Assembly: GCA_048941015.1 (NCBI GenBank)
Contig: JBHLNZ010000081.1
Span: forward strand, 1-12,645
DNA: 12,645 bases
DNA from: Promethearchaeota archaeon
GTDB taxonomy: Archaea; Asgardarchaeota; Lokiarchaeia; Sigyniarchaeales; SOKP01
Reading direction: 5' to 3'
Shown here: positions 11,690 to 12,355 of the stretch, piece by piece
How positions within the stretch are numbered: position 1 is the stretch's first letter
Layout of the letters: each line of letters starts with the position of its first letter
Notes under the pieces: generated by a model
Told to the model about the DNA's origin: nothing
What the model saw: the letters and a program-made list of their open reading frames with translations, nothing else
Database searches by the model: none
Position numbers and translations under genes: made by a program

Positions 11690-12355
11690 AAAGGTGTCGA
11701 GAAGTGCAACGAATTCCCTAGGCTCTTCATTGCAGCGGTATTATTATTTCCACACGCTAGGTGTGAAAATTTCAATGTATCAGCTCAACAAGCACCGGTA
11801 AAAGAATCACCAATCAAACAATAATTTCTTATCGTTTAAATGGTATTATCCTAAGATAATCAAACCAATCCTCGCGAATTGGCTGGATTGAACACCAGAT
11901 ATGAACCAATGGTTAACATTTTTTTGTTCATATTGTGCTTTTACACACAATTTCTTTTAATATTGCTTTTGATTAATCGTCGAATAAACAAATCCAAAGA
12001 TTTTCCTACTATTATCCGATTTTTACATCCGAGGATGCAATTCTTCCTCCCATTTTCTGAAAGTGCAGTTATCATCGCCGATAGCTAGATCCGAAAACCT
12101 AACAATCGATTTTACACCCCTTATAGGTTGGGATATAAAGTTGCATAATTCCTTTGGGATTTATGTACGATTTTAACCGTTAAACGCAAGATTCGAAAAT
12201 CTATTGTTTAATTCTATATCCGGAGATATAGTCTTCCTTTCATCCAATGAAAGTGCGATTAATACCAAATTGTCATACTTAATAGTATTTCAATTGGTAG
12301 CTGTACATTGAGGTATTAATACCTCTTCTCAACGTTCACACGGTTAGGTATGAAC
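11690..12355 (-). ncRNA. Putative ~660-nt highly structured non-coding RNA, family not recognised
   Basis: No credible ORF. Nested long-range helices 12333-12325/11704-11696, 12310-12299/11785-11773 and 12263-12256/11979-11972 enclose more than 15 hairpins. Loops include GAAA, GCGA, UUCG (twice) and UCCG. Numerous G-U pairs form only on the minus strand. Upstream TATA box and downstream U-tract. Confidence 0.8.

Follow-up and report, generated by a model that had tools for sequence, protein, structure and literature searches.

We analyzed a 12,645-nt stretch of DNA from a Promethearchaeota archaeon (GenBank assembly GCA_048941015.1, contig JBHLNZ010000081.1, positions 1 to 12,645; here called the window), in which an initial annotation made from the letters alone had proposed a large structured noncoding RNA (ncRNA) gene. 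The RNA in question occupies a gene-free stretch on the minus strand (positions 11690 to 12355; length, 667 nt). On one side, two thioredoxin-fold genes and a thioredoxin reductase (TrxR) gene run on the plus strand and end at 11622. On the other side lies the end of hsp20, on the minus strand, with its stop codon at 12493. The TrxR gene is convergent with the RNA and is separated from it by 68 nt, with no overlap.

The minus strand of this stretch folded much better than dinucleotide shuffles of itself. Its minimum free energy (MFE) was -215.8 kcal/mol versus a shuffle mean of -141.2 kcal/mol (z = -12.1), compared with -160.1 kcal/mol for the plus strand (z = -5.7). All six elements that had been folded by hand in the initial annotation were present at their given positions, both in the RNAfold MFE structure and in an RNAalifold consensus of four sequences. 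The orientation, which had been read from G-U pairs, also held. The MFE structure of the window RNA contains 22 G-U pairs, and G-U cells exceeded A-C cells in the homologue alignments (85:5 and 263:68), which identifies the minus strand as the RNA strand. One correction applies, inside the part called Domain I: the single-sequence MFE pairs the strands of two repeated modules with one another, whereas the comparative fold and relatives with a single module favor local hairpins within each module. The minus strand of the window from 11690 to 12355 holds a real, selected fold.

A modular RNA family in Asgard archaea

A BLAST search among relatives returned one full-length homologue (genome G032; 85% identity) plus several partial matches, which an nhmmer profile resolved as complete, shorter RNAs. 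Three of these match window-RNA positions 1 to 62 and 385 to 667 contiguously (~380 nt), and one matches positions 1 to 167 and 568 to 662 (~270 nt). Scanning with a word from the junction of Domains I and II added two RNAs of the same nested form as the window RNA, on metagenome contigs (87% and 85% identical). We then used two covariance models. Model R1 comprises the promoter, the 5' hairpin, and the 5' strands of helices P1 to P3 and was built from six sequences, the window among them. Model R2 comprises the last 112 nt, that is, the 3' strand of P3, hairpin B, the 3' strand of P2, hairpin C, the 3' strand of P1, and the CCUUU tail. The window scored 111 bits with R1 (E = 4.7e-16), the independent support being the 50-plus other genomes found, and 77.1 bits with R2 (E = 8.6e-11; positions 11689 to 11798).

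The family comprises 61 related RNAs, ~230 to 743 nt long, from three genera of one Asgard family. An Asgard host had been suspected from the window, and this is supported by the names given to three members: Candidatus Hodarchaeota, Candidatus Hermodarchaeota, and Promethearchaeota. Of these names, the first and the third belong to the kingdom Promethearchaeati. All 61 start ~40 nt past a promoter of the form AATAG-N4-5-TTTAAATA and end with the P1 3' strand, an (A/C)CCUUU tail, and T-rich sequence. They share a fixed base (zero to two 5' hairpins, P1, P2, P3, hairpin B, and hairpin C) and differ in the head above P3. In class I (~230 to 300 nt), the head consists of hairpin A and a three-hairpin module, without Domain II. 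Class II (~335 to 385 nt), the commonest, has a short GNRA-type hairpin A and a five-way junction of ~190 nt (Domain II). Class IV members (731 to 743 nt) look like fused tandem units, because R2 matches an internal unit end. The window form nests hairpin A, Domain I, and Domain II on one trunk and is the largest single-trunk form. Besides the window copy, this 667-nt arrangement is found in three close relatives, one in a genome and two on metagenome contigs.

Covariation

Between the window RNA and G032, its closest genome homologue, 199 of the 241 MFE pairs were unchanged, 26 had a one-sided change that preserved pairing, 7 had compensatory changes, and 8 were broken. Substitutions affected 10% of paired versus 27% of unpaired positions. 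In the alignment of the four nested RNAs (239 pairs), 98.2% of the cells were paired and 16 pairs had changed on both sides, some of them in Domain I. The Domain II alignment (37 sequences, 60 pairs) had 93.4% of cells paired and 27 pairs changed on both sides. For the trunk and 3' hairpins (61 sequences, 38 pairs), 87% of cells were canonical, compared with 34 to 51% in slid controls, and 19 pairs had changed on both sides. Shuffled controls never did as well: 0 of 500 for the nested RNA on all five measures, with slid controls at 37 to 45%, and 0 of 500 for Domain II, with slid controls at 38 to 46%. The counted structures come from the sequences that were aligned, a limit that does not touch the double changes or the slid controls; in addition, relatedness is not taken into account in the shuffle control. 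Covariation among homologues, as a genuine structured RNA would have, is strong, with double-sided changes in Domain II as well as across the nested RNA as a whole.

The window RNA is, with high probability, an ncRNA gene of ~667 nt that has its own archaeal promoter and oligo-T terminator, belongs to a modular family restricted to Asgard archaea, and is proposed to act in trans.

Architecture of the window RNA

All coordinates in this section are on the minus strand. The putative promoter (12376 to 12396), read in the sequence, consists of an AATAG box followed by the TATA box TTTAAATA (12385 to 12378), which lies ~25 nt upstream of the 5' end at G12355. It is nearly invariant in the six-sequence alignment. 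At the other end, the 3' tail ACACCUUUAC is followed by a run of seven T residues (11687 to 11681; tail and run together, 11681 to 11695) that is likely an archaeal terminator. Relatives repeat the tail and then the T-rich sequence. Thus, the TATA box and T run that had been described as bracketing the RNA are both there and are both kept in relatives. The same promoter and T run accompany all 61 members whatever the upstream gene, which indirectly points to independent transcription of the window RNA.

The 5' hairpin (12334 to 12355; 8 bp, GUUCAUAC/GUGUGAAC) is present in the MFE structure and 100% paired in the four-sequence alignment; relatives have zero, one, or two copies of it. It directly abuts the closing helix P1, whose 5' strand GUUGAGAAG (12325 to 12333) pairs with the 3' strand CUUCUCGAC (11696 to 11704) in both the MFE structure and the family alignment. 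P1 (CGAGAAG/CUUCUCG) is almost invariant, with six of its seven counted pairs identical in 47 to 61 of the 61 sequences.

With no spacer between the 5' hairpin and P1, coaxial stacking would set the 5' end beside the base that follows the P1 3' strand, G12355 next to A11695, a nick-like geometry of the kind that ligases favor. A variant of the ncRNA gene explanation is that processing of the transcript joins its ends into a circular RNA or, in the tandem forms, cuts it into unit-length pieces. Relatives made of tandem units do exist, and R2 matches an internal unit end. Against this, P1 is an uninterrupted 9-bp helix with no bulge-helix-bulge motif around the ends (judged by eye), and relatives in G121 and G140 have no 5' hairpin. 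In addition, the tandem forms have perfect outer P1 strands but degenerate P1-like strands inside, an arrangement that agrees better with a single nested fold than with cleavage into units. We consider such processing unlikely, although it would be compatible with an ncRNA gene that has its own promoter and terminator.

Above P1 are two further trunk helices. P2, formed by 12315 to 12323 and 11737 to 11744, is the third helix of the trunk and was absent from the initial annotation. It is found in the four-sequence alignment, and its 3' strand also in the 61-sequence alignment, in which the helix covaries (e.g., GGUAUUG/CAAUACC, GGUAAUG/CAUUACC, and AGUAUAG/CUAUAC). P3 pairs 12299 to 12311 with 11773 to 11785 in the MFE structure, its 3' strand being recovered in the 61-sequence alignment as well, and 5 of its 10 pairs covary among the 61 sequences. 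Between the 3' strands of P3 and P2 stands hairpin B (11746 to 11770), an MFE hairpin included in R2, in which all five counted pairs covary (61 sequences). Hairpin C (11705 to 11734; GCAAUGA.../...UCGUUGC) lies between P2 and P1. It, too, is in the MFE structure and in R2, and the sequence of its stem is conserved.

The head begins with hairpin A (12264 to 12298; ACCAAUUG...UUUGGU), supported by the MFE structure and by one compensatory pair in the four-sequence alignment. Hairpin A is long in class I and in the window RNA and shrinks to ACC-GAAA-GGU in the ~355-nt form. Domain I follows (11972 to 12263), closed by AUUAAUCG/CGAUUAAU (12263 to 12256 with 11979 to 11972) in both the MFE structure and the comparative fold. 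It contains a first module of three hairpins (12253 to 12180), common to the class I relatives and included in the match of homologue G036 to window-RNA positions 1 to 167; a branched subjunction (12179 to 12066); and a second module (12065 to 11980), which on alignment of the two is a diverged copy of the first. The module copies share CACUUUCA...GGAAGA followed by a hairpin capped by UCCG or CUCG, and their stems differ by paired changes. The helices of Domain I (helices 6 to 18 of the four-sequence alignment) are 94 to 100% paired, and four of them (9, 10, 14, and 16) show compensatory changes. We also considered the subjunction as a decayed copy of Domain II, but nhmmer gave no match between them.

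Domain II (11786 to 11971; ~186 nt) is a five-way junction common to the ~355-nt majority form and covered by the 37-sequence alignment. Its closing helices are recovered, and it holds a GAAA-capped hairpin (11845 to 11808) and a GCGA-capped hairpin. Across the 37 sequences, junction nucleotides between the covarying helices are highly conserved (e.g., GCGAUAUGAAAGG, UGAACUAAAAU, and AUUCGGUGUUCAAUC), a pattern typical of catalytic or ligand-binding cores. On this view, the RNA could be catalytic (a ribozyme) or could sense a ligand or metabolite, the junction being its active or binding core. However, class I members lack Domain II and still keep the promoter, trunk, and 3' hairpins, so Domain II is not the indispensable core of the family. 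No Rfam ribozyme or riboswitch model matched, and a sensor would have no same-strand downstream gene to control, the next gene being convergent. A catalytic or sensing role therefore seems quite unlikely to us, and the trans-acting ncRNA gene remains the preferred explanation.

Comparison with known RNAs and coding genes

A cmscan search of the window against Rfam 15 (all 4,227 families) gave nothing at the gathering thresholds. At E values of up to 10, only chance-level matches to snoRNA and sRNA families appeared (17 to 18 bits versus cutoffs of 37 to 101 bits). None of the models for RNase P, introns, OLE, ROOL, GOLLD, HEARO, or raiA matched the window, so the novelty proposed for this RNA was not undone by a known family. 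Five relatives of other size classes likewise had no Rfam match.

RNase P RNA (RF00373; gathering threshold, 84 bits) was considered specifically and gave no window match at gathering or at E of ≤10. The window's own genome (G000; 95% complete) has no RF00373 match, which at first left room for the window RNA to be a disguised or highly divergent RNase P RNA. The relatives reject this reading since they carry both RNAs: G032 has a 666-nt homologue on contig C13 and a normal RNase P RNA of 129.8 bits on contig C97, and a normal RNase P RNA was found in 26 of 36 genus relatives. The missing match in G000 is probably an assembly gap and not a real loss. Signal recognition particle (SRP) RNA (RF01857) was rejected as well; there was no window match, and the SRP RNA of G000 is encoded on contig C45. 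That match (positions 33640 to 33875) reached 68.9 bits versus a cutoff of 96.5 bits and covered model positions 67 to 307 only.

We also considered whether the stretch could be a coding or decayed gene. Two open reading frames (ORFs) overlap it, one of them on the opposite strand, and neither has a Pfam match. The regions that hold them are deleted in shorter homologues. A lookup of an antisense ORF of the region in public assemblies, as transcript evidence, found nothing on record. We give almost no weight to the possibility that this is a coding or decayed gene or a known family (RNase P, SRP, group I or II intron, or OLE/ROOL/GOLLD/HEARO) in strongly diverged form. For the last of these, RNase P and SRP RNAs are encoded elsewhere, and Rfam gave no match to such families even at E values of up to 10.

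We found no paper describing the RNA family. We rate the family as a new RNA class and the window copy as a nested variant of it. The suggestion that this RNA might represent a new class thus stands as far as Rfam and the literature go, with one refinement: the RNA belongs to a modular family, most often represented by RNAs of ~355 nt, and is the expanded, nested form of that family.

Genomic setting

From 5745 to 12645, the window contains a run of stress-type genes encoding a universal stress protein, two CCG-domain proteins, a DJ-1/PfpI protein, two double-thioredoxin-fold proteins, thioredoxin reductase, and Hsp20. The location between a thioredoxin operon and hsp20, as initially described, is correct for the window, but apart from the window RNA only the three relatives nearest to it share this location. 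The 19 members of genus g1 that do not belong to the window clade are all found 70 to 130 nt downstream of a family B DNA polymerase gene (polB) and on its strand. Class I members in genus g18 are also downstream of polB, whereas the class II members in that genus have upstream of them a small membrane-protein gene unrelated to hsp20. In the window's own genome, polB (contig C106) has no such RNA behind it. We looked for a consistent partner gene in these neighborhoods and found none; the downstream genes differ too. With the same RNA and promoter at polB, hsp20, and membrane-protein loci and no constant neighbor, the gene is one that is gained, lost, and moved as a unit together with its promoter.

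That the window RNA and the three relatives nearest to it all lie between hsp20 and the TrxR gene, amid the stress-type cluster (universal stress protein, DJ-1/PfpI, two thioredoxin-fold proteins, TrxR, and Hsp20), could be taken to mean that the RNA works in cis or as an antisense regulator, either as an element of the hsp20 3' untranslated region or as a brake on convergent TrxR transcription. We regard this as highly improbable. The RNA has its own conserved promoter beyond the T-rich stretch that ends hsp20, it stops short of the TrxR gene by the 68-nt gap, and most members of the family lie behind polB or the membrane-protein gene, with no hsp20 or TrxR gene nearby. The hsp20 gene ends in a T-rich tract (T9-C-T9, within 12465 to 12495) just ahead of the promoter region of the RNA; this tract is probably the hsp20 terminator and would separate the two transcripts. 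On one metagenome contig (L216; positions 6860 to 7409), ~550 nt lie between the end of the RNA and the TrxR gene, versus 68 nt in the window.

Distribution and copy number

Matches to R1 and R2 were found in 17 to 19 of 41 genomes of genus g1, in 36 to 37 of 53 to 54 genomes of genus g18, and in 1 of 6 genomes of genus g23. The two models select almost the same genomes, and the few differences are due to truncations at contig ends and to class II or IV members near or below the R2 threshold. There was no R1 or R2 match in the other 10 genera of the same family, no R1 match in three other families of the order, and no R2 match in a sample of 26 further families of the phylum. In five genomes from other families, the region downstream of polB had no homologue. 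A 16-nt degenerate pattern run over genome contigs mostly gave chance matches. A longer pattern gave no match in viral contigs and a single match among genomes; it was misspaced by one base and able to match only the G143-type sequence, so these two results say little about absence.

One copy per genome is usual, and a few genomes have two. G122 carries two complete family genes in tandem, 512 nt apart (contig C76, positions 5144 to 5992), and G140 carries two copies ~2.7 kb apart (contig C21, positions 15998 to 19084). G014 has members on contigs C46 and C179. G136 and G144 have two copies each, of different size classes and at different loci.

Such a distribution might be explained if the RNA were left over from, or carried by, a mobile element, e.g., as the guide or scaffold RNA of a transposon-encoded nuclease or as a nonautonomous element. 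Presence or absence at the same polB locus among close species, a move of the gene to hsp20/TrxR in the window clade and to yet another locus in g18, and the occasional duplicates and tandem copies would all agree with mobility. On the other hand, the gene is almost always single copy, no terminal repeats were seen, and no gene for a transposase, TnpB/IscB, reverse transcriptase, or integrase adjoined it in ~60 loci. The neighbors are ordinary chromosomal genes whose orthologues are 71 to 88% identical, and viral contigs gave no match (with the faulty, narrow pattern described above). We therefore judge a mobile element very unlikely and retain the chromosomal ncRNA gene that moves with its promoter.

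Proposed function

As the preferred explanation has it, the gene would give rise to a discrete, stable transcript that acts in trans as a folded RNA particle, with different lineages mounting different heads above P3 on a fixed base. The invariant base formed by P1 and hairpin C may be where a conserved partner docks or where the RNA associates with itself, and lineage-specific surfaces may reside on the variable head. A scaffold-type role of this sort is suggested by analogy and by the fact that the P1/hairpin C base is kept in sequence and not just in pairing while the heads are swapped, lost, and multiplied. We offer it as a possibility that falls somewhat short of an even chance.

Several observations weigh against the trans-acting ncRNA gene or parts of it. 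In g1 and g18, the two main genera, roughly one genome in two gave no match, and in five essentially complete g1 genomes of this kind, polB runs directly into the next gene. This speaks against a core housekeeping function, and the patchy presence suggests an accessory, nonessential one. Domain I is supported by four close kin (85 to 87% identity to the window RNA), and its structure comes from the same sequences. Transcript ends, abundance, and stability are deduced only from the conservation of promoter and terminator. Finally, we found no partner protein, conserved neighbor gene, or protein-binding motif such as a K-turn, which makes the scaffold mechanism a guess by analogy. Motifs were inspected by eye only, and in that inspection no K-turn, bulge-helix-bulge, or tetraloop-receptor motif was convincing.

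The closest parallels in size and style are OLE, ROOL, GOLLD, the raiA motif, and HEARO. Like these, the Asgard family has large forms of ~600 to 800 nt with many covarying helices and multiway junctions, has no coding capacity, is patchily distributed within restricted lineages, and has a function that is at most only emerging. GOLLD also carries a variable part, as this family does. Unlike them, the family resides in Asgard archaea and not in a bacterium or phage, and it has no match in Rfam 15. The window RNA is not in a prophage or tRNA-island context, and the family has members as short as ~230 nt, whole-domain swaps, and fusion of tandem units. OLE, ROOL, and GOLLD self-assemble into dimers or cages, as seen by cryo-electron microscopy (PMC12286853). 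A second comparison is with archaeal RNase P RNA (RF00373) and SRP RNA (RF01857), which resemble the family in being promoter-driven and single copy, in having ends that pair in a closing helix, and in their stability, which for the family is presumed. RNase P and SRP RNAs are universal, however, while about every second close relative lacks this family, and the family has no covariance model match.

In Rfam and in the literature, the large structured RNAs of unassigned function that we found were from bacteria and phages, and we found none described from archaea. The family is a well-supported archaeal example of a large structured RNA, from the lineage closest to eukaryotes. It also makes the growth of a complex RNA visible within two genera, by gene duplication, by fusion in tandem, by nesting, and by internal duplication of modules, on a trunk that stays the same. 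A bolder reading is that these RNAs are an Asgard class of large, ornate, and plastic RNAs growing by the duplication and nesting of modules, a counterpart of OLE, ROOL, and GOLLD that forms an RNA-dominated particle, either self-associating or joined at its ends into a ring, with a cellular role new to any domain of life. We hold this only tentatively and think it somewhat improbable. Because closely related species differ in whether they have the gene, comparative genomics and metatranscriptomics should offer ways to its function, and the 667-nt form, with two different heads on one trunk, is a good object for structure work.

Other observations at polB loci

Two single-contig genomes of a sister family (G055 and G050) have a gene-free stretch of ~290 nt after polB that contains the box-like words TGATGACGA/ATGACGAC. 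This stretch is not homologous to the family described here and may be another small RNA. In G017, the polB match (contig C10, positions 28814 to 30202) has one in-frame TAA.

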